DNA of 64,000 nucleotides from an uncultured Prevotellaceae bacterium (GTDB taxonomy: Bacteria > Bacteroidota > Bacteroidia > Bacteroidales > Bacteroidaceae), in assembly GCA_900316505.1 (NCBI GenBank), contig ONDH01000005.1, positions 48,053-112,052 on the forward strand, written 5' to 3'. The notes under the pieces were generated by a model. It had not been told where the DNA came from, made no database searches, and saw only the letters and a program-made list of their open reading frames with translations. Positions within the stretch are counted from its first letter, which is position 1; every line of letters starts with the position of its first letter. This document shows positions 2,631 to 35,754 of the stretch, one piece after another. The position numbers and the translations under genes were made by a program.

Positions 2631-3283
2631 TGTCCTTCTGTTTTTTTCGTGTCTGAACTCTCTTCCTTCTTCTCTTCTTCCCCTACACTTTCAGTTTTCT
2701 TCTCCTCCTTCTTCACGGATTCTTCCTTCTCCGGTTCTTCCATCGGTGCCAATTCCTGCGAATCCACCAGCACCTCCTCTGGAGCTTGCTCTTCCGACGA
2801 GCCGCTTCCATCCCCCTTCTTAATCAGGAATGGCGGGGTGATGGAATTATGCAGCAGGCTGTCGGAAGTGGCTCTAAGCGCCTTCTCCACATTCGACTGC
2901 CGCGTCAGGTTCATCAGTTCACTCGACTGCGTGAGCACATTGTACTTCACTTCCTGCAACCGACCACGCAGACTGTCAATGAGGATGGCATCCTGCTGAC
3001 TGTCATAACGGTTGCCCGTATAGAGAATCGTCAGCAGCACGCAGAACATCACAAACATGATCTGCTTAATCATGAACTTGCTCATCAGAAAATCGCCACC
3101 AAGTATTGACTTGACCGATATTTCACCGATGTCGTCTTCTTCCTCATCGGTGAACTTCCTAATCGCCTCGATGGCTTCTTGTTCCTCTGTTTTCAGTTCT
3201 TCGTCTGCCCCAAAATCATCTGGAGGAGTCATCTTCGACTCTTCCAACTCTAATTTCCGTTTTTCTTCATTCTTACTTGACAT
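2627..3283 (-). CDS. FtsL-like cell division protein with long acidic N- and C-terminal tails
   Basis: 218 aa with a single central TM helix (IMFVMFCVLLTILYTG) followed by a coiled-coil-like segment. The ATGA overlaps the ftsI start, and the dcw position is between rsmH and ftsI. The call rests on context and topology only. Confidence 0.6.
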   Translation of the reverse strand: MSSKNEEKRKLELEESKMTPPDDFGADEELKTEEQEAIEAIRKFTDEEEDDIGEISVKSILGGDFLMSKFMIKQIMFVMFCVLLTILYTGNRYDSQQDAILIDSLRGRLQEVKYNVLTQSSELMNLTRQSNVEKALRATSDSLLHNSITPPFLIKKGDGSGSSEEQAPEEVLVDSQELAPMEEPEKEESVKKEEKKTESVGEEEKKEESSDTKKTEGQ

Positions 3284-29011: not shown

Positions 29012-29638
29012 CTACCTGATGAAATTCATCGGGTTCCACGCTTCCCTTTCAGGATACTGAGGAGCACCCTCGGCATGGAGTTTCCTCAACAGGAAAGCCA
29101 TATTATCTGCCAAGGTGCGCATGGTTTGCATGCCTTCTGCATCCTGTGCTGCCTCGCCAGGATCACGCCCATAAGCGATGTTCCAATACTGCGATGTCAC
29201 CACAGGCATGTTCATCATCATGAAGGGCATGTTCATCGTCTGGAAAGCTGCCGTAGCACCACCACGACGACACACGGCAATGGCTGCAGCGGGTTTATTC
29301 ACAAACAACGGACCTGCCGAGAAGAACAGACGCTGCACCAACGATAAGGCTGCACCCGTTGGTTGTCCATAATACACAGGTGAACCAATGATGAAGCCAT
29401 CACACGTCGCCATCTTCTCCACAATGCGATTGCACACATCATCATCGAAAGCACAACGTCCCAAACTCTTCGCACGACATTGTCCACAAGCGATGCAACT
29501 GCGCACAGGCTTCACACCCACCTGCACAATCTCAGCATCCACCCCATTCTTTTCCAACTGCTTGGCCACCTCACTCAATGCAGCCATCGTGTTGCCCTCC
29601 TTATGAGGACCCGCATTCACTAAAAGCACTTTACTCAT
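29012..29638 (-). CDS. Flavodoxin-fold NAD(P)H-dependent FMN reductase / iron-sulfur flavoprotein-like protein
   Basis: MSKVLLVNAGPHKEGNT..., the Cys cluster CIACGQC...C, and GFIIGSPVYYG. Confidence 0.75.
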   Translation of the reverse strand: MSKVLLVNAGPHKEGNTMAALSEVAKQLEKNGVDAEIVQVGVKPVRSCIACGQCRAKSLGRCAFDDDVCNRIVEKMATCDGFIIGSPVYYGQPTGAALSLVQRLFFSAGPLFVNKPAAAIAVCRRGGATAAFQTMNMPFMMMNMPVVTSQYWNIAYGRDPGEAAQDAEGMQTMRTLADNMAFLLRKLHAEGAPQYPEREAWNPMNFIR

Positions 29639-29664
29639 AATTCTTTATATTTGTATTTAATTAT

Positions 29665-29790
29665 TCAAGTTTCTGAAGTTATCGCTACGCTCTGGAGTTA
29701 AGCCATTACCTATATCCGGACGTTTTCCACCAGCCTGAGTATCGGCTTAACCACTTAACTACTGACTACTTAACTACTTCAGAAATTTGA
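29665..29790. repeat. Intergenic palindromic element with short-tandem-repeat arms and a GTTATCGCTNCGCTC core
   Basis: Outer inverted repeat tcaagtttctgaagt (29665-29679) / acttcagaaatttga (29776-29790), 14 of 15 matching. The core is at 29678-29704. The right arm reads cttaact actgact acttaac tacttca. Confidence 0.8.
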
Positions 29791-29796
29791 GTCTTT

Positions 29797-30696
29797 TTAT
29801 TTGTCTTCCACAACCTCCGCTCCATCTTCTTGTTCATAATAATAAGAATAGTCGATACCCTTCATAAACAGTTCGCGGTCATCAATACGATCAGTCAGGG
29901 CTTGTTGGAGCAAATGCTTGATGGCATTGGCATCTGCCACACTTCTGCGCATCGCTTCAAGGTATTCCTTCTTGTCTATCTTGCTCCAATCCACACACTT
30001 CTTCAAACGTTTCTTAAATATCAAATCAAGCCAGATGCGTGTAGAGCGTCCATTACCTTCCATGAAGGGGTGAGCCACGTTCATCTCCACATACTTGTTG
30101 ACAATCTCCTCGAAAGTGTTCTCTGGCATCTGCTCAATAGCCCTTAGATTCCTTGACAGCAATTCCGCACGACAGAACAGCGTACCATCCTTCCAAATCG
30201 TCTTTGTCCGTATCCGACCTGCAAAGTCGTAAAGCCCACCAAAGAGGTAGGCATGTATCTGTTGCAGAGCCTTTACCGTCCCAGGTTCCATGCTGTCAAG
30301 TATTCCACTCTCTATCAGAGTATAAGCCTTCTTCTTGCTCTGCCCGTCAATACTATTGTCGCTATAAACAAACCAGTCGAGGAAGGCAGTAGCACGATTG
30401 TTGGGAATCGCTTGTGCAAGCAAGGTAACACTCTTTTGATCAACAACATCTGTCATACGTTTCTTGCCATCAGGAGCAGTTAGTTTCAACTGGTTAGTGG
30501 CACTAACCACTTCATTCTGTTCCTTTTTCAGTTTCGTTTTCAGATATTTCCAGTAGTTGCGGTTTTTCTGATAGTCGTCTTGTTCATTGATGGCTCCAAC
30601 AATATCAAGCACAGAGAACCACCACTTGGAATGTTCCTCATCCCAAATGGCTCGCACCTCATAATCCTTATAAAAACGAATAGACTGCTTACTCAT
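29797..30696 (-). CDS. Bro-N-like domain fused to a Fic (AMPylase-type) domain
   Basis: The N-terminus resembles Bro-N/DinD proteins (YEVRAIWDEEHSKWWFSVLDIVGAI...). The Fic motif is HPFMEGNGRSTR, and the C-terminus contains SYYYEQ. Confidence 0.8.
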   Translation of the reverse strand: MSKQSIRFYKDYEVRAIWDEEHSKWWFSVLDIVGAINEQDDYQKNRNYWKYLKTKLKKEQNEVVSATNQLKLTAPDGKKRMTDVVDQKSVTLLAQAIPNNRATAFLDWFVYSDNSIDGQSKKKAYTLIESGILDSMEPGTVKALQQIHAYLFGGLYDFAGRIRTKTIWKDGTLFCRAELLSRNLRAIEQMPENTFEEIVNKYVEMNVAHPFMEGNGRSTRIWLDLIFKKRLKKCVDWSKIDKKEYLEAMRRSVADANAIKHLLQQALTDRIDDRELFMKGIDYSYYYEQEDGAEVVEDK

Positions 30697-30715: not shown

Positions 30716-31468
30716 TCATTTTATTTCAAACATTTGTAACAAATATATTTCAGTCTCATTTGTATATATTGGAGAAACTCGCTTTTTACTGTGCATAACA
30801 ACATGTGTGACATTCTCTCCAGGATTTATCCTTGCGTTATAAAGTTGATTTCCTTTGAGTTGACAACATGAAAAGCAGTACCGTTTCTGCTCGCTAAAAC
30901 ACCTTATACGACTTAGAAAGTTCGCAAATCTTCCCCATCTCGTATGAACAGGATTAAGAATTATATCGACATTATCAAGCACTTTAGAAAAACGTCGCTT
31001 CAAATCCGAGCGATTACGCAAGCGAAACTCCGCACTTCCAGTGCTGCCTTTCAATATATTATTTTCACCACATTGGATTATTAGAAAGCGCTTTCCTGAC
31101 ACTTCAAATTGTCTGTGTTGTTCCAGTTCTTCAATGAGATTCCCTATGTTTTCTTCCGTTGCTTCATTTGTTGTGGAGAACACTTGATTTGTTTCAAGGT
31201 CTATAATACGATTGTTATGCAACAAATATAATTTATTGCCATCTAAACCTTGATGTTCATTTAGTTCAAACAGTGCGCTAATCCGCTTGTGAGCGACACT
31301 TTCACCTATTTTGTACAAATCCTCTGGACTCTTTAATATATGCTCACTAAACATTACGAAATCAGCGCTCGTTTCATTAAGGATGTTCGATATGGCATTA
31401 ATACGGAACTCCCGTTCTTTACCCGACAGGCGAGAATATTCAGGAAATGATACTAACAGTATTTTCAT
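30716..31468 (-). CDS. Hypothetical protein (250 aa) with no confidently recognisable family
   Basis: Clean AT-rich ORF with its own -7 box (TAAGTTTG, 31499-31506). It weakly resembles the nitrilase-superfamily layout (FVMFSEH, LIIQCGEN, VDIILNP) and has a C-terminal Cys cluster CFSEQKRYCFSCC. Confidence 0.6.
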   Translation of the reverse strand: MKILLVSFPEYSRLSGKEREFRINAISNILNETSADFVMFSEHILKSPEDLYKIGESVAHKRISALFELNEHQGLDGNKLYLLHNNRIIDLETNQVFSTTNEATEENIGNLIEELEQHRQFEVSGKRFLIIQCGENNILKGSTGSAEFRLRNRSDLKRRFSKVLDNVDIILNPVHTRWGRFANFLSRIRCFSEQKRYCFSCCQLKGNQLYNARINPGENVTHVVMHSKKRVSPIYTNETEIYLLQMFEIK

Positions 31469-31648: not shown

Positions 31649-32431
31649 TTATTCTTTTTTTATTTTAAGATTCCATCCCTGCTTCTGAATGAAGCGTATG
31701 AGGTTCATAACATTTACAATACTCCATTGGTTGGATACAACAAATTTGACCCCATCACTACTTTGCAGAATAAATTGCCGTTTCACCTGATGCCTGTATG
31801 AGCCTGTAATTATTTTCAGTCTTTTTGCATTCTCAATATTTTCTTCTAACATTTTCCATTGATTCCAGTCGCCCAACAAGTCATCATTGAAAATTTTCTT
31901 TAGAGCAAGCATAGTGGTTTGTGGATGTACGTTGAGATATTCTTTTACAACATCAAAACCTAATCGACTCTTATAAGACACTTTGCCATTTAGGATGATA
32001 CTGATTTTTCCAGCCATGTCCTCTATAGTGAAATCTTTTTCTTTTACATCTGTTGGAGGAGCAACATTTTTTGGAGATGAAACAATCGTTTTTTTTCTAT
32101 GATAGACTTTAATCTCAGCATCATCAAGGAGCATAGCAACATCTTGAAAAATCTCAAGGGCTTCTTCTGGCTTGACATTAAAGAACTCACGGTTATTACG
32201 AATACGACGATTTGTGAAACGTTCTATAGAATGGTGAACATGTTTCTCCGCCTCGTTATATTTTGTGGTTTTCATTGTGGCAAATATCACAAAGGGAAGG
32301 GGGACAGATGTATTGTCAAGTTCCTTGCTTCTCACATCCACAGGACGCGAGCTCTTTCCTATCTTCACCCAATCTTCACGGAAACTGGGATTGGTCAGTA
32401 TATATACGTATCCTGGTTCTTTGTTTGCCAT
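31649..32431 (-). CDS. GIY-YIG-like (T5orf172/MUG113-type) domain protein with an uncharacterised C-terminal domain
   Basis: N-terminus PGYVYILTNPSFREDWVKIGKSSRPVDVRSKEL...REFF. The C-terminal half was not recognised. Confidence 0.7.
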   Translation of the reverse strand: MANKEPGYVYILTNPSFREDWVKIGKSSRPVDVRSKELDNTSVPLPFVIFATMKTTKYNEAEKHVHHSIERFTNRRIRNNREFFNVKPEEALEIFQDVAMLLDDAEIKVYHRKKTIVSSPKNVAPPTDVKEKDFTIEDMAGKISIILNGKVSYKSRLGFDVVKEYLNVHPQTTMLALKKIFNDDLLGDWNQWKMLEENIENAKRLKIITGSYRHQVKRQFILQSSDGVKFVVSNQWSIVNVMNLIRFIQKQGWNLKIKKE

Positions 32432-32442
32432 CTTATTCTTAG

Positions 32443-32525
32443 GTTTTGGATTTCATCGCAAAGGTACGAACAACTCATCACAATACAAAATATAAGTGGA
32501 TGTTTTTTCTTTCCTTATCTCATCC
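32443..32525 (-). repeat. Promoter cassette copy 1 (-7 TACCTTTG at 32459-32466, -33 TTTG at 32486-32489), upstream of the GIY-YIG gene
   Basis: About 65 nt are nearly identical to 33556-33621 and 34684-34749. Confidence 0.8.
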
Positions 32526-32589
32526 AACACTTTCCCGTTATACGAGAAATACTTGGCACCTTGATACGCACCAGAGGTGTTGCGATGCT

Positions 32590-33447
32590 CTATTTCTTTG
32601 GCAGTTTCGATTTATCTTTCAACATATCCTTCTCATCTTTTGCTACACGACGTTCCACCTTCTTGATGTTTTCTGCAGGTGGCAGTTCCTCTGGTTTTAT
32701 GCCACGCTGGCTTAACATGCCACGAACGCTGCGGTTATTCTGTACATGTTCAGCTGTGATATTGGCTTCGCCATAGAGGTCTTTCTGCTCTACGTTATAA
32801 TTGGTCATTTCCGTAGCAAGATTCTTGGCGGCAATCGTCAGTGTAGGCAGATAATCAGCCAAGGCACCGCTCTTGATGCCAAGCCTCTGTTTCATCTGCT
32901 CCGTTGAAAGCCCTCCAAACAGGGCATAATCCCCTTTGGAGCGAATACGTCCAAAGCCTCTATCATCCACTCCACGCTGATAAATATTGCGACTTAACTG
33001 TTTTTCAGAGGCACGCAAGCGTTCACGGGTATTCAAACGAGCCAACTCGTTCAAACGTTCTTCTATGAGTTCCGCCTTACGAGTCTGAACGGCGAAGTAA
33101 CTTTGTGCAAAGGCTACTTCTTCTTTCTTCGGGTCACCGTTCTGTGCTATCAAGTAACAGGCATAACGGGTAAGCATAAAGTCCTGTACTTCACGCTGTG
33201 CGCCTTTAGCTAAAGCTATCATTTTCGTGGTCTCACGAAAATGATCATCCACATTGATTCCCAATGTCTTACATGATTCAATCGCACGACCAATCGCCAC
33301 CACGAAATTCTCCCAACGGGCATAGCCTAACACCTGTTGCAGTTCACGTGCATACCATACTTCGATGGTATTGCCTTCGTCATCATTGATGCTCTTTGCT
33401 ATCAAATCAAAGACTGATTTATATTCCTCTATTTTCGTTATATCCAT
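32590..33447 (-). CDS. dinD: DNA-damage-inducible protein D homologue (Bro-N family)
   Basis: Strong similarity to my recollection of E. coli DinD, for example MLTRYACYLIAQNGDPKKEEVAFAQSYFAVQTRKAEL against [37 protein letters not shown]. Confidence 0.8.
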   Translation of the reverse strand: MDITKIEEYKSVFDLIAKSINDDEGNTIEVWYARELQQVLGYARWENFVVAIGRAIESCKTLGINVDDHFRETTKMIALAKGAQREVQDFMLTRYACYLIAQNGDPKKEEVAFAQSYFAVQTRKAELIEERLNELARLNTRERLRASEKQLSRNIYQRGVDDRGFGRIRSKGDYALFGGLSTEQMKQRLGIKSGALADYLPTLTIAAKNLATEMTNYNVEQKDLYGEANITAEHVQNNRSVRGMLSQRGIKPEELPPAENIKKVERRVAKDEKDMLKDKSKLPKK

Positions 33448-33530
33448 ATTGTTCTTGGGTGGTTCTTTTATTCAGGTCCGTTGGTAGTCATATTGCAGTT
33501 TTACACCAAAATTATCGTCGATGTCCACCT

Positions 33531-33690
33531 TTTTCCTGCTTCATGACTTTTTTGTTTTCAATCGCAAAGGTACGAATAAGTCATCACAATACAAAATATA
33601 AGTGGATGTTTTTTCTTGGCATCTTCTTTCACCTTTTCTCTCCTTATCCTTTCCCTTCAATCACTTCCCAATGCCCCGTCTTTTTGCTTC
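33531..33690 (-). repeat. Promoter cassette copy 2 (-7 at 33565-33572, -33 at 33592-33595), flanked by a Fic 5' remnant and the real Fic 3' end
   Basis: About 150 nt match 34657-34815 with only a handful of mismatches. It contains the remnant start MKQEKGGHRR* (33512-33544). Confidence 0.85.
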
Positions 33691-34672
33691 CCACACGTTT
33701 GATGATGCCCTCTTCTTTCAACTCACCGAGGCGACGTTTTACCGTTGCTTCAGAAGCATCGATGAGGGCAGCATATTCGGCATAGTTGAGAGTTGCATCT
33801 TGCTGAATAGCTTGATATAGGCGCCCTTTTATCGGGTCAGCGAATGATTTTATCGGGTCAGAAGAAGCTTTTATCAGGTCACCCTCTTGTGTCTTCTTGT
33901 ATTCCTCTATCTCCTTACTGATGTTGCGGATGTGCTCTTCCATCATAAATGCGCGGAAGGGGGCAAGCGATTCCTGTTCCCTTGAGTCTATCAGGGCTTG
34001 GATATATTCTGCTTTGTCTTCTTTGATGATTTTCACGGGCACAAGCCCAAATTCATATTGCAATTGATTCATCACGAGGCGAGACATGCGCCCATTGCCA
34101 TCCACCCACGGATGAATGGTCACCAACTGGTAGTGTGCATCGAAACTCAGCTGGTATTTGGCTATCATGTCTTCCGATTCCATCAGTTGATGGCGATTCC
34201 GATTGAGTTGTTCGCAAAACTCTGCTAACTTGCCAGGAACTTTCTGATAGTTCATATAAGAACGCCCACCTGTGCCTGCTGTCACCCCGACCAATCGGAG
34301 GTCGCCTTTCGAAGCATCAAAAGAGCCTTGTGCAGTATTGTACATGGCACCTGTATTCTTCATCACCAGGGCAGACAGGCTTTTCAGCATCTCTACGGAG
34401 AAGTCTGCATGCAAACGAGCCAGCTGCATGGACTGTTCATAGGCTGCTTTCAAGTCGAGATTCATCATCTGTTCTTGCAGGGTGCGTCCCTTGGCTGTGA
34501 TGCCCTCATCAAACAGGAGTTGATTCTCTATCTCCGTCACGGTACTGCCTTCAATGGCTGTTGAATGGGTAATAAGCGAATAGAGATAGAACTTCTGGTA
34601 GTCTATCTGCTCGGCGATGTCCAAAGAATGATGCTCTTCAAGTAGCCTCAACAATTTTTCTTCCTGCTTCAT
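33644..34672 (-). CDS. Fic-family protein with a C-terminal winged-helix domain
   Basis: Fic motif HPWVDGNGRMSR and N-terminal inhibitory-helix motif STAIEG. The C-terminus reads ATVKRRLGELKEEGIIKRVGSKKTGHWEV. Confidence 0.85.
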   Translation of the reverse strand: MKQEEKLLRLLEEHHSLDIAEQIDYQKFYLYSLITHSTAIEGSTVTEIENQLLFDEGITAKGRTLQEQMMNLDLKAAYEQSMQLARLHADFSVEMLKSLSALVMKNTGAMYNTAQGSFDASKGDLRLVGVTAGTGGRSYMNYQKVPGKLAEFCEQLNRNRHQLMESEDMIAKYQLSFDAHYQLVTIHPWVDGNGRMSRLVMNQLQYEFGLVPVKIIKEDKAEYIQALIDSREQESLAPFRAFMMEEHIRNISKEIEEYKKTQEGDLIKASSDPIKSFADPIKGRLYQAIQQDATLNYAEYAALIDASEATVKRRLGELKEEGIIKRVGSKKTGHWEVIEGKG

Positions 34673-34815
34673 GACTTTTTGGTTTTCAATCGCAAAGGTA
34701 CGAATAACTCATCACAATACAAAATATAAGTGGATGTTTTTTCTTGGCATCTTCTTTCCCCTTTTCTCTCCTTATCCTTTCCCTTCAATCATTTCCCAAT
34801 GTCATGTCTTTTTTT
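34657..34815 (-). repeat. Promoter cassette copy 3 (-7 at 34693-34700, -33 at 34720-34723), plus a roughly 50-nt remnant of another Fic-wHTH 3' end
   Basis: The remnant at 34760-34815 reads KKT*HWEMIEGKG*, against KKTGHWEVIEGKG* in the intact gene. Confidence 0.85.
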
Positions 34816-34847
34816 CATTCCCTCATTCTTTCATTTTATAGAGTGTT

Positions 34848-34905
34848 GGCTTAACTCCTGAGCGGAGCGATAGCTCCCTTAACTCCTTTAACTCCAATAA
34901 ACTAA
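34848..34905. repeat. Partial copy, inverted, of the GTTATCGCTNCGCTC-core element, followed by TTAACTCC short repeats
   Basis: ggcttaactcctgagcggagcgatagc (34848-34874) matches the reverse complement of 29678-29704 at 24 of 27 positions. Confidence 0.7.
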
Positions 34906-35021
34906 GGCTCGCAAGGGTTGAACAAGAAAGCCTGTGTTTCGGCAACGCCAAGATATGTCTTTCGTTATCTCAAAAGCACGAGTGGAATCATCTCTGCGAT
35001 GCGTTGCCGTATATCACTAAA

Positions 35022-35153
35022 CAATTTGGCTTGATTACAACTTTCAATTTGGCTTGATTACAACTTTCAATTTGGCTTGAATACAAAACTCAATTTGGCT
35101 TGAATACAAAACTCAATTTGGCTTGAATACAAAAAGGTGTCTTCAAGCCAAAT
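35022..35153 (+). repeat. Iteron-like array: five tandem 23-bp repeats (CAATTTGGCTTGAWTACAA...) ending in a 12-bp inverted copy
   Basis: Units at 35022, 35045, 35068, 35091 and 35114. atttggcttgaa (35116-35127) is mirrored by ttcaagccaaat (35142-35153). Confidence 0.9.
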
Positions 35154-35179
35154 GAAAAAGAGTATTCAAGGTAAATAAA

Positions 35180-35211
35180 TTTGTGTAATCAGAATAAATC
35201 AGTTAACTTTG
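35180..35211 (+). promoter_or_regulatory. Canonical Bacteroidota promoter (-33 TTTG at 35180-35183, 20-nt spacer, -7 TAACTTTG at 35204-35211) for the HU-like gene
   Basis: Both elements and the spacing were read directly. It lies about 140 nt upstream of the ATG at 35350. Confidence 0.55.
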
Positions 35212-35349: not shown

Positions 35350-35754
35350 ATGGGACTACGCTACAGAGTGAAGAAAGTGAATCTTGACTTGTACAAAAGG
35401 AAAGTGGATGGGTATAAGGTGCAGTTTTTGAACCACACCACCATCACGGAAGAGAGTTTGGTGGAATATATCTCGCGTTCGGCAGGTATCCCCAAGAGCA
35501 TGGTGAAGGCTTGCACGATGGCAATTGCTGATGCCATCGGTTTCTATGTCATCAATGGGCACAAGGTGTCATTCGGCAACTTCGGGAAGTTTCACCTGAA
35601 GGTGGAGAACACGTGTGTAGATACGCCTGAGGAATGTCTGGCTGACACGGTGAAAAGGACAACACTGCATTTCACCCCCAGCAAAAGCATCAAGAATGTG
35701 CTGGAAGGTGTCGAACTGGAAGAGTACAAGTCTTTAAGTGTCAAAAAGGATTGA
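35350..35754 (+). CDS. HU-like DNA-binding protein (HU_HIG type)
   Basis: 134 aa. The sequence ...ESLVEYISRSAGIPKSMVKACTMAIADAIGFYVINGHKVSFGNFGKFHLKV... shows HU-fold character. Confidence 0.75.
   Translation: MGLRYRVKKVNLDLYKRKVDGYKVQFLNHTTITEESLVEYISRSAGIPKSMVKACTMAIADAIGFYVINGHKVSFGNFGKFHLKVENTCVDTPEECLADTVKRTTLHFTPSKSIKNVLEGVELEEYKSLSVKKD

Follow-up and report, generated by a model that had tools for sequence, protein, structure and literature searches.

Within a 64,000-nucleotide (nt) stretch of DNA from an uncultured rumen Prevotellaceae bacterium (hereafter the window), a promoter-bearing segment occurs three times as direct repeats ahead of three unrelated genes, namely a Fic-winged helix-turn-helix (Fic-wHTH) gene, a DinD-like gene and a T5orf172 gene. 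These genes lie between a gene for an FMN reductase and a gene for an HU-family DNA-binding protein, in a region whose content differs from strain to strain. We consider it probable that this region, a hotspot of candidate defence genes, is remodelled by homologous recombination between the repeats, which would descend from a duplicated Fic unit, and additionally by illegitimate deletions and by replacement through the conserved flanks. This reading is built on the repeats themselves, on the gene-end remnants attached to them, on strain variants of the locus and on the breakpoints between strains, all of which are directly present in the sequences compared.

All genes of the repeat region are on the minus strand, and promoter and junctions are accordingly read on that coding strand. 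An earlier note, made from the letters of the window, had described a segment of about 65 nt recurring ahead of a GIY-YIG gene, dinD and the Fic-wHTH gene. A 55-nt core (TCGCAAAGGTACGAAnAAnTCATCACAATACAAAATATAAGTGGATGTTTTTTCT) is indeed present at 32456-32510, 33562-33616 and 34690-34744, with no fourth match in the 64-kb window; 100 dinucleotide-preserving shuffles contained no match, and none is expected by chance. A repeat search of the window delimited three 68-nt copies, each 91% identical to the reference, at 32444-32511, 33550-33617 and 34678-34745. The second and third of these extend, as the earlier note had also stated (to about 150 nt), into a 156-nt pair of 95% identity (33530-33685 and 34658-34813; repeat search and alignment). 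The copies are therefore direct repeats of 68-156 nt in one common orientation. The features of the repeat region are:

34658-34813, minus strand: repeat copy 3, 5' of the Fic-wHTH gene, with a stop-interrupted Fic 3' remnant, the promoter block, the 5' untranslated region (UTR) and the first 5 Fic codons (start at 34672)
34772-34813, minus strand: stop-interrupted Fic end, translated as KKT*HWEMIEGKG*
33530-33685, minus strand: repeat copy 2, with the real Fic 3' end, the promoter block and a Fic 5' remnant, ahead of the DinD-like gene
33644-33685, minus strand: intact Fic end, translated as KKTGHWEVIEGKG*
33512-33544, minus strand: truncated Fic start MKQEKGGHRR*, a remnant
32554-32573, minus strand: terminator-like hairpin and T-run just past the DinD-like stop and before copy 1, a consensus match only
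32444-32511, minus strand: repeat copy 1, 68 nt, chimeric, with its promoter block at 32459-32489, ahead of the T5orf172 gene

Each copy carries TTTG-N19-TACCTTTG on the minus strand (34693-34723, 33565-33595 and 32459-32489), which agrees with the motif reported before and with the arrangement of Bacteroidota sigma-A promoters (-33 TTTG and -7 TAnnTTTG, about 19 nt apart). The pattern matches eight times on both strands of the entire window, and three of these eight matches are the repeat copies. A sigma-70 consensus scan gave the same counts as in shuffles, Bacteroidota promoters being different from that consensus, and an Rfam scan of the whole window matched nothing. On the strength of the motif the copies are treated here as putative promoters; the putative terminator stands between the DinD-like gene and the copy that follows it.

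The two longer copies share 42 nt from the 3' end of the Fic coding sequence, a spacer, the promoter with its 5' UTR, and 15 nt from the 5' end of the Fic coding sequence. To leave a Fic 3' end before the first promoter as well as a Fic 5' end after the second would take three or more earlier Fic units, or a history of circle integration with an equivalent outcome. These remnants make a former tandem Fic array the simplest reading for copies 2 and 3. Translation confirmed the truncated MKQEKGGHRR* at 33512-33544 and the real end at 33644; for KKT*HWEMIEGKG* the sequence reported earlier was correct, and its limits (34760-34815) were slightly loose. The suggestion that the truncated start serves as an upstream open reading frame was not sustained: its ATG is ATA in most other strains (L002, L003, L005, L017 and L131), so we see in it a decaying remnant, and nothing points to a function. 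Copy 1 has a different make-up. Its upstream half is of the Fic type and its 5' UTR (GAAATCCAAAACCTAAGAATAAGATGGCA) is of the type found ahead of T5orf172 elsewhere, in loci that have a different upstream half. This chimeric structure suggests that copy 1 arose by recombination of a resident copy with a related promoter travelling with T5orf172.

Related loci were obtained by exact-sequence look-up of both flanking proteins in rumen metagenome contigs, combined with a metagenome pattern scan. Between identical FMN-reductase and HU proteins, rumen assemblies contain at least 10 different gene contents. The layouts are as follows, where P is a repeat copy:

Window and L001: P-Fic-P-DinD-P-T5orf172-250 aa-BroN-Fic
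L003, L011, L016 (the commonest): P-Fic-P-DinD-719 aa-AbiH-BroN-Fic
L005: P-Fic-P-DinD-P-Cas12f/TnpB-like gene plus four 36-nt CRISPR-like repeats
L004, L006, L010, L012-14: P-Fic-(truncated P)-HigB/HigA-like pair
L002, L128/L130: P-Fic-P-KilA-N (PDC-S22)
L015: P-Fic-P'-T5orf172 remnant-DUF1016-type III restriction-modification (RM)-DUF5131
L018: P-Fic-79 aa-274 aa-HTH
L126: P-Fic-P''-DEDDh exonuclease/FtsK-gamma-113 aa-BroN-Fic
L144: P-Fic-DUF723-BroN-Fic
L131, L134, L135: P-DinD-..., Fic-less
Contig in run X16: Fic-P-T5orf172, DinD-less

Across these strains six unrelated genes stand behind the repeat (Fic, DinD, T5orf172, Cas12f-like, DEDDh and KilA-N). Defence-type annotations among the variants comprise PDC-S04, S13, S22, S57, SoFic, AbiH, type III RM and HigBA-like, and further Cas12f-like with CRISPR-like repeats, DEDDh exonuclease and type IIG fragments. 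Judged by gene content, the locus is a strain-variable chromosomal hotspot of candidate defence genes between two conserved housekeeping genes.

The places where strains part company can be compared with the repeats. Island positions run along the coding strand from the HU end, and subtracting a position from 35755 gives the window coordinate. The homology that the window shares with the HigBA variants stops at 2156 (window 33599), within copy 2 and just before the -33 element. With L003 it stops at 3250 (window 32505), where copy 1 has its upstream edge, and with L005 at 3329 (window 32426), just beyond the ATGGCA start behind copy 1; past this point L005 has the Cas12f-like gene in place of T5orf172. 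The Fic-less loci L131, L134 and L135 read, from the HU gene, Fic 3' remnant, single repeat, Fic 5' remnant and DinD, a layout that would be the exact product predicted for a crossover between copies 3 and 2. On the X16 contig 32511 is joined to 33642, a junction that is the putative equivalent for copies 2 and 1, with the DinD unit lost. L131 is moreover a mosaic, with a left flank 91% identical to L002 and, from the repeat onward, 97-98% identity to L003/L005; the change of closest relative falls inside the repeat. A GAGTT/GACTT core marker is found in the Fic-upstream copy of some strains and in the second copy of others. Cassette variation, for which the earlier note had proposed to look, is present among related strains: number and content of the units differ, and by sequence comparison several strain differences, including the Fic-less, DinD-less, chimeric and mosaic cases, map to the repeat.

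We propose that tandem duplication of the Fic unit would have multiplied one Bacteroidota-type promoter together with a Fic tail and head, and that the extra Fic-unit bodies would then have been lost or replaced. The promoter copies that were kept would now drive the DinD-like and T5orf172 genes and, in other strains, Cas12f/TnpB-like, DEDDh exonuclease-FtsK-gamma and KilA-N genes. General homologous recombination between copies, within the chromosome or with imported strain DNA, would delete, duplicate or exchange units while leaving each downstream gene with a working promoter. Other changes would be illegitimate deletions and insertions that left gene-end remnants, and replacement of the whole island through recombination in the conserved flanks would also contribute. 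Promoter activity, descent from a tandem array and the part played by RecA-type recombination are what we infer from the sequence patterns described above.

Several observations weigh against this reading or limit its reach. Fic similarity beyond the 156 nt is collinear and marginal (p 0.016 and 0.036), and local alignment found no significant Fic remnant at copy 1 (p 0.15); the tandem array, which the earlier note had proposed, is firm only where copies 2 and 3 are concerned. Rather than products of deletion, the Fic-less and DinD-less forms may represent ancestral states. The majority of cassette boundaries are without the repeat, which therefore accounts for only part of the turnover. RNA runs, which consist of assembled contigs without 5'-end information, cover Fic and DinD at low depth, and the one metatranscriptome contig that spans the promoter possibly reflects DNA carry-over or read-through.

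Genes were annotated by Pfam and PADLOC searches, and the defence labels used here denote candidates by similarity. On this annotation the segment at 29.7-34.9 kb is a small island of single-gene candidate anti-phage systems. From the left flank to the right flank the region comprises:

35350-35754, plus strand: HU-family DNA-binding protein gene, conserved left flank
33644-34672, minus strand: Fic-wHTH protein, 342 amino acids (aa), SoFic-like; Pfam Fic and HTH_24, PADLOC SoFic (PDLC03963) E 1.1e-24 over residues 29-330
32590-33447, minus strand: DinD-like Bro-N protein, 285 aa; PADLOC candidate defence family PDC-S13, E 5e-114
31649-32431, minus strand: T5orf172 (GIY-YIG-type) protein, 260 aa; PADLOC candidate defence family PDC-S57, E 2e-65
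30716-31468, minus strand: 250-aa open reading frame (ORF) of the variable island with no Pfam or PADLOC match and no repeat ahead
29797-30696, minus strand: Bro-N plus Fic protein, 299 aa; PADLOC PDC-S04, E 9e-160
29660-29796, no strand assigned: palindromic element of about 130 nt at the right edge of the variable region, folding better than shuffles (z -3.06, single strand)
29012-29638, minus strand: FMN-reductase gene, conserved right flank

The translated Fic-wHTH protein has a catalytic Fic motif (HPWVDGNGRMSR) and, at its N terminus, the inhibitory-helix motif STAIEG. With HxFx(D/E)GNGRxxR and a C-terminal winged HTH it has the features of the SoFic type, and its best solved relative is FICD. 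Its likeness to SoFic-type Fic defence proteins (PDLC03963), a match to the model over near-full length with the catalytic motif kept, is one of sequence only. The gene is the conserved left-hand, HU-side member of the island in most strains and is missing only from the Fic-less variants. The 250-aa ORF, observed only in the window-type variant, is flanked by two candidate defence genes.

At the right edge of the island, most variants have the BroN-Fic promoter and the first 23 codons (MSKQSIRFFKDYEVRAVWDEEKK*) fused to the flank; this stub lies about 95-165 nt upstream of the FMN-reductase start in L002, L004, L015, L018 and L134, and an internal BroN-Fic fragment is kept in L005. The stub is a second case of a Fic-family gene-start remnant at the locus. 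One arm of the palindrome (29668-29705) pairs with 34847-34884 at the left edge over a 38-nt stretch that is 82% complementary. Inverted GGAGTTAAGCC-containing sequences thus bracket the whole island, and numerous metagenome contigs end at the palindrome. Between the island and the HU promoter stand five tandem 23-nt units (CAATTTGGCTTGATTACAACTTT and variants, window 34999-35136) with an inverted partner at 35138-35191, which could be binding sites; the L010 alignment is shifted by one such unit, suggesting an extra unit there.

Two features of other strains deserve description. The third cassette of L005 (L005:7743-9770) encodes a 535-aa Cas12f/TnpB-like protein (PADLOC Cas12f, E 2e-10), followed by about 190 nt of non-coding DNA and then four 36-nt direct repeats (GTTGTGGTTAACCCCAATA[T/A]AGATGGTAGATACAAG) with spacers of 29-30 nt. 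It has no cas1 or cas2 and resembles a miniature type V CRISPR-Cas-like unit behind the reused putative promoter. In L002, an insertion of about 310 nt in the spacer that separates the stop codon of Fic from the second promoter copy resembles a miniature inverted-repeat transposable element (MITE; L002:7270-7581), with 27-nt imperfect terminal inverted repeats and a duplicated AGAAGATG at its flanks.

The window-type repeat occurs in two chromosomal contexts, at the HU/FMN-reductase locus and downstream of a DUF6078 gene (L083, L116, L127 and L132). In the latter context it precedes Fic or T5orf172, followed by variable defence genes; as to whether this context is a mobile element, the upstream genes of L132 look like housekeeping genes judged by sequence alone, and a VapE-like gene is adjacent in L136. 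One species-representative metagenome-assembled genome (MAG), CAMVIM01, has a solitary repeat with a 219-nt Cas12f-like stub at its FMN-reductase locus (L052:4549-4900) and, on a separate contig, a Fic-led island beside the DUF6078 gene (L083), so that the repeat family occupies two loci in one genome.

The Fic-wHTH family itself is very large, with at least 8000 candidates, all of E < 1e-20. An identical 343-aa Fic-wHTH protein, 83% identical to that of the window, stands to the left of three defence gene sets (L136-L143), which are Wadjet/Mks-like, helicase plus PLD-nuclease, and DpnII/SLFN-AlbA/NUDIX; each time a small HTH_3 gene lies upstream, with no promoter duplication. Near the more distant homologues P0091 and P0004 no promoter duplication was found either, these loci having an HTH_3 gene upstream or a single repeat only. 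Fic-wHTH appears to be a recurrent left-hand anchor of variable defence islands in rumen Bacteroidales, and the promoter duplication is particular to the lineage of the window.

A degenerate search across one genome per species matched 107 stretches, nearly all in MAGs of rumen Prevotellaceae that represent about 80 species when counted by assembly prefix. With three exceptions, the matched loci contain the 32-nt block TTTTGTATTGTGCTCACTTATTCGTACCTTTG, 2-4 bases from the block of the window. An ORF starts downstream in 90 of the 103 testable matches, at a median distance of 30 nt, and this position supports the promoter reading; the remaining matches are followed by tRNA or riboswitch-like leaders. 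Taken by itself, the -33 to -7 part is, on this distribution, generic rather than locus-specific, the block of the window being a local variant. The full window-type repeat is rare, with 10 stretches found in the metagenome collection, and had no match in viral contigs, hence no sign of phage carriage. The earlier note had held that a generic promoter without association to variable content would speak against a cassette locus; the first half of this description applies to the -33 to -7 block, which is widespread, and the second does not apply to the full repeat, which is tied to variable defence loci.

The generic block usually follows GAAGGTACTTTCGTTCGACAATAAAAACAAAAAAA (L019-L125; for example L064:2644-2764, L079:693-814 and L094:5767-5884). 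At times it takes the form of two tandem units of about 88 nt, whose upstream and promoter arms are approximately reverse-complementary to each other. Conservation of the spacer between -33 and -7 is far above the apparent need of promoter function, and the block may be a promoter-bearing repeat family. Literature searches on a Prevotella promoter block and on repeat-linked Bacteroidota defence cassettes found nothing specific. The block may also serve as a strong portable promoter for genetic tools in the poorly tractable Prevotellaceae.

The earlier note had likened the exchange of genes at this locus to that of an integron. In a true system of that kind, the repeat would be the site of a site-specific recombinase whose gene lies elsewhere in the genome, with cassettes moving in circular form, which would fit the same-orientation arrays of mostly single-gene units, the number of units that differs between strains and the repeats at several unit boundaries. 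We nevertheless judge it highly improbable. Pfam annotation found no integrase, transposase or invertase in the island, in any variant or within 10 kb of either flank. No attC-like hairpin was found, as the repeat folds no better than shuffles on its two strands (z 0.45 and -0.44), and its place 5' of each gene, with a putative promoter of its own, is the opposite of that of attC. The junction downstream of the repeat is not constant and is different for each of the six genes: for KilA-N the join directly follows GATTGAAA, for the DEDDh gene it follows AAACCTAA, for both T5orf172 and the Cas12f-like gene it follows ATGGCA, and for DinD it is preceded by about 70 nt of decayed Fic start. The repeat is altogether absent from most cassette boundaries, among them the junctions of HigBA, AbiH, type III RM, the 250-aa gene and BroN-Fic. 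With no recombinase nearby, no hairpin, variable junctions and repeat-free boundaries, integron-like site-specific exchange was rejected; the interpretation given in the earlier note is, overall, partly supported.

The repeat could be kept in several copies mainly for co-regulation, the winged HTH of Fic or another factor binding an operator within it and switching the neighbours together with Fic, in which case recombination would be a side effect. Relative to the generic block, the window repeat has GTGATGAG in place of GTGCTCAC and an upstream CATCCAC, which together form an imperfect dyad (CATCCAC-N14-GTGATG) around the -33 element; Fic both has a winged HTH and is the conserved first gene of the island. 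The dyad, however, is missing from the Fic promoter of related species (L116 and L083) and from the T5orf172-type copies, and the 83%-identical Fic homologues have their HTH_3 gene upstream without the duplication, which leaves co-regulation unlikely in our view. Independent insertion of a MITE-like mobile promoter ahead of each gene would agree with the recurrence of the -33 to -7 block family before more than 100 unrelated genes in about 80 species, at times as tandem units of about 88 nt with palindromic arms, and the Fic-repeat spacer of L002 did receive a genuine MITE. We regard this origin as very unlikely, given that the window copies have neither terminal inverted repeats nor target duplications, that the Fic coding sequence flanking copies 2 and 3 on either side speaks for a segmental duplication and not for insertion, and that the window-type repeat is so rare (10 metagenome stretches, no viral contig and nowhere else in the window). 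To the idea that metagenome assembly collapsed or chimerically joined the repeats we give almost no credence: repeats are a known cause of misjoins and the window comes from, or is identical to, the metagenome contig L001, but the three-copy layout also occurs in the independent assembly L005 and an identical locus in L001/L009, which argues that the layout is not an artefact. The same or near-identical two- and three-copy layouts recur in independent assemblies from different samples and assemblers, and diagnostic substitutions distinguish the copies.

Homologous recombination between promoter-bearing repeats thus stays our preferred reading, and a broader version of it can be offered tentatively, as something we think rather doubtful. 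The repeat family might act as a shared 'adaptor' for the defence genes of rumen Prevotellaceae, such that circulating defence genes bring a member of it as their 5' promoter and recombine behind a resident copy at either locus, gaining expression. If true, the adaptor would be a recombinase-free functional analogue of an integron that works by homologous recombination. The turnover of defence genes at hotspots without a mobile-element signature is still poorly explained, and literature searches returned no description of a reused promoter that doubles as internal crossover point of a defence island. The locus offers a concrete and testable route, in which internal promoter-bearing repeats would let general recombination move genes while ensuring their expression, and the rumen provides a natural series of variants for following it (Fic-less, DinD-less, chimeric repeats and one mosaic strain).

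Compared with known systems, the locus shares with integrons a variable, same-orientation array of mostly single-gene units with a recurring sequence at their bounds. It differs in that IntI, the attC hairpin and a fixed junction are all missing and many units lack the recurring sequence; attC is located 3' of a promoterless cassette, whereas the recurring sequence here is a putative promoter 5' of the gene. By sequence, the locus is an integron in no defining feature. In the vsp/vlp lipoprotein loci of Mycoplasma, a conserved 5' promoter/leader cassette precedes each divergent gene and recombination takes place between cassettes; the genes are paralogous surface antigens and the process is partly site-specific inversion. 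The likeness lies in clustered divergent genes, each behind the same upstream cassette, in a locus reshaped by recombination, and the difference in the unrelated defence-type genes and the lack of an invertase here.

Defence-island hotspots have different gene sets between the same conserved core genes. The minimal mobile elements of Neisseria, as far as they are described in a later paper, are likewise gene sets swapped between conserved genes by homologous recombination in the flanks (Saunders & Snyder 2002, cited in PMC1538595). As in these systems, so far as that account goes, the same two conserved genes enclose different contents without dedicated mobility genes; the present locus adds internal direct repeats as putative crossover points and as a supply of promoters. 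Putative mobile promoters were defined as sequences of at least 50 nt with at least 80% identity upstream of non-homologous genes, in a survey that left open how such promoters move (Nijveen, Matus-Garcia & van Passel 2012, PMC3575422). The three copies of the window, 68 nt at 91% before the non-homologous Fic, DinD-like and T5orf172 genes, and the six genes behind the repeat across strains agree with this operational definition (PMC3575422). What distinguishes the copies described here is that they are clustered in one hotspot, carry remnants of a segmental duplication and coincide with the breakpoints between strains.

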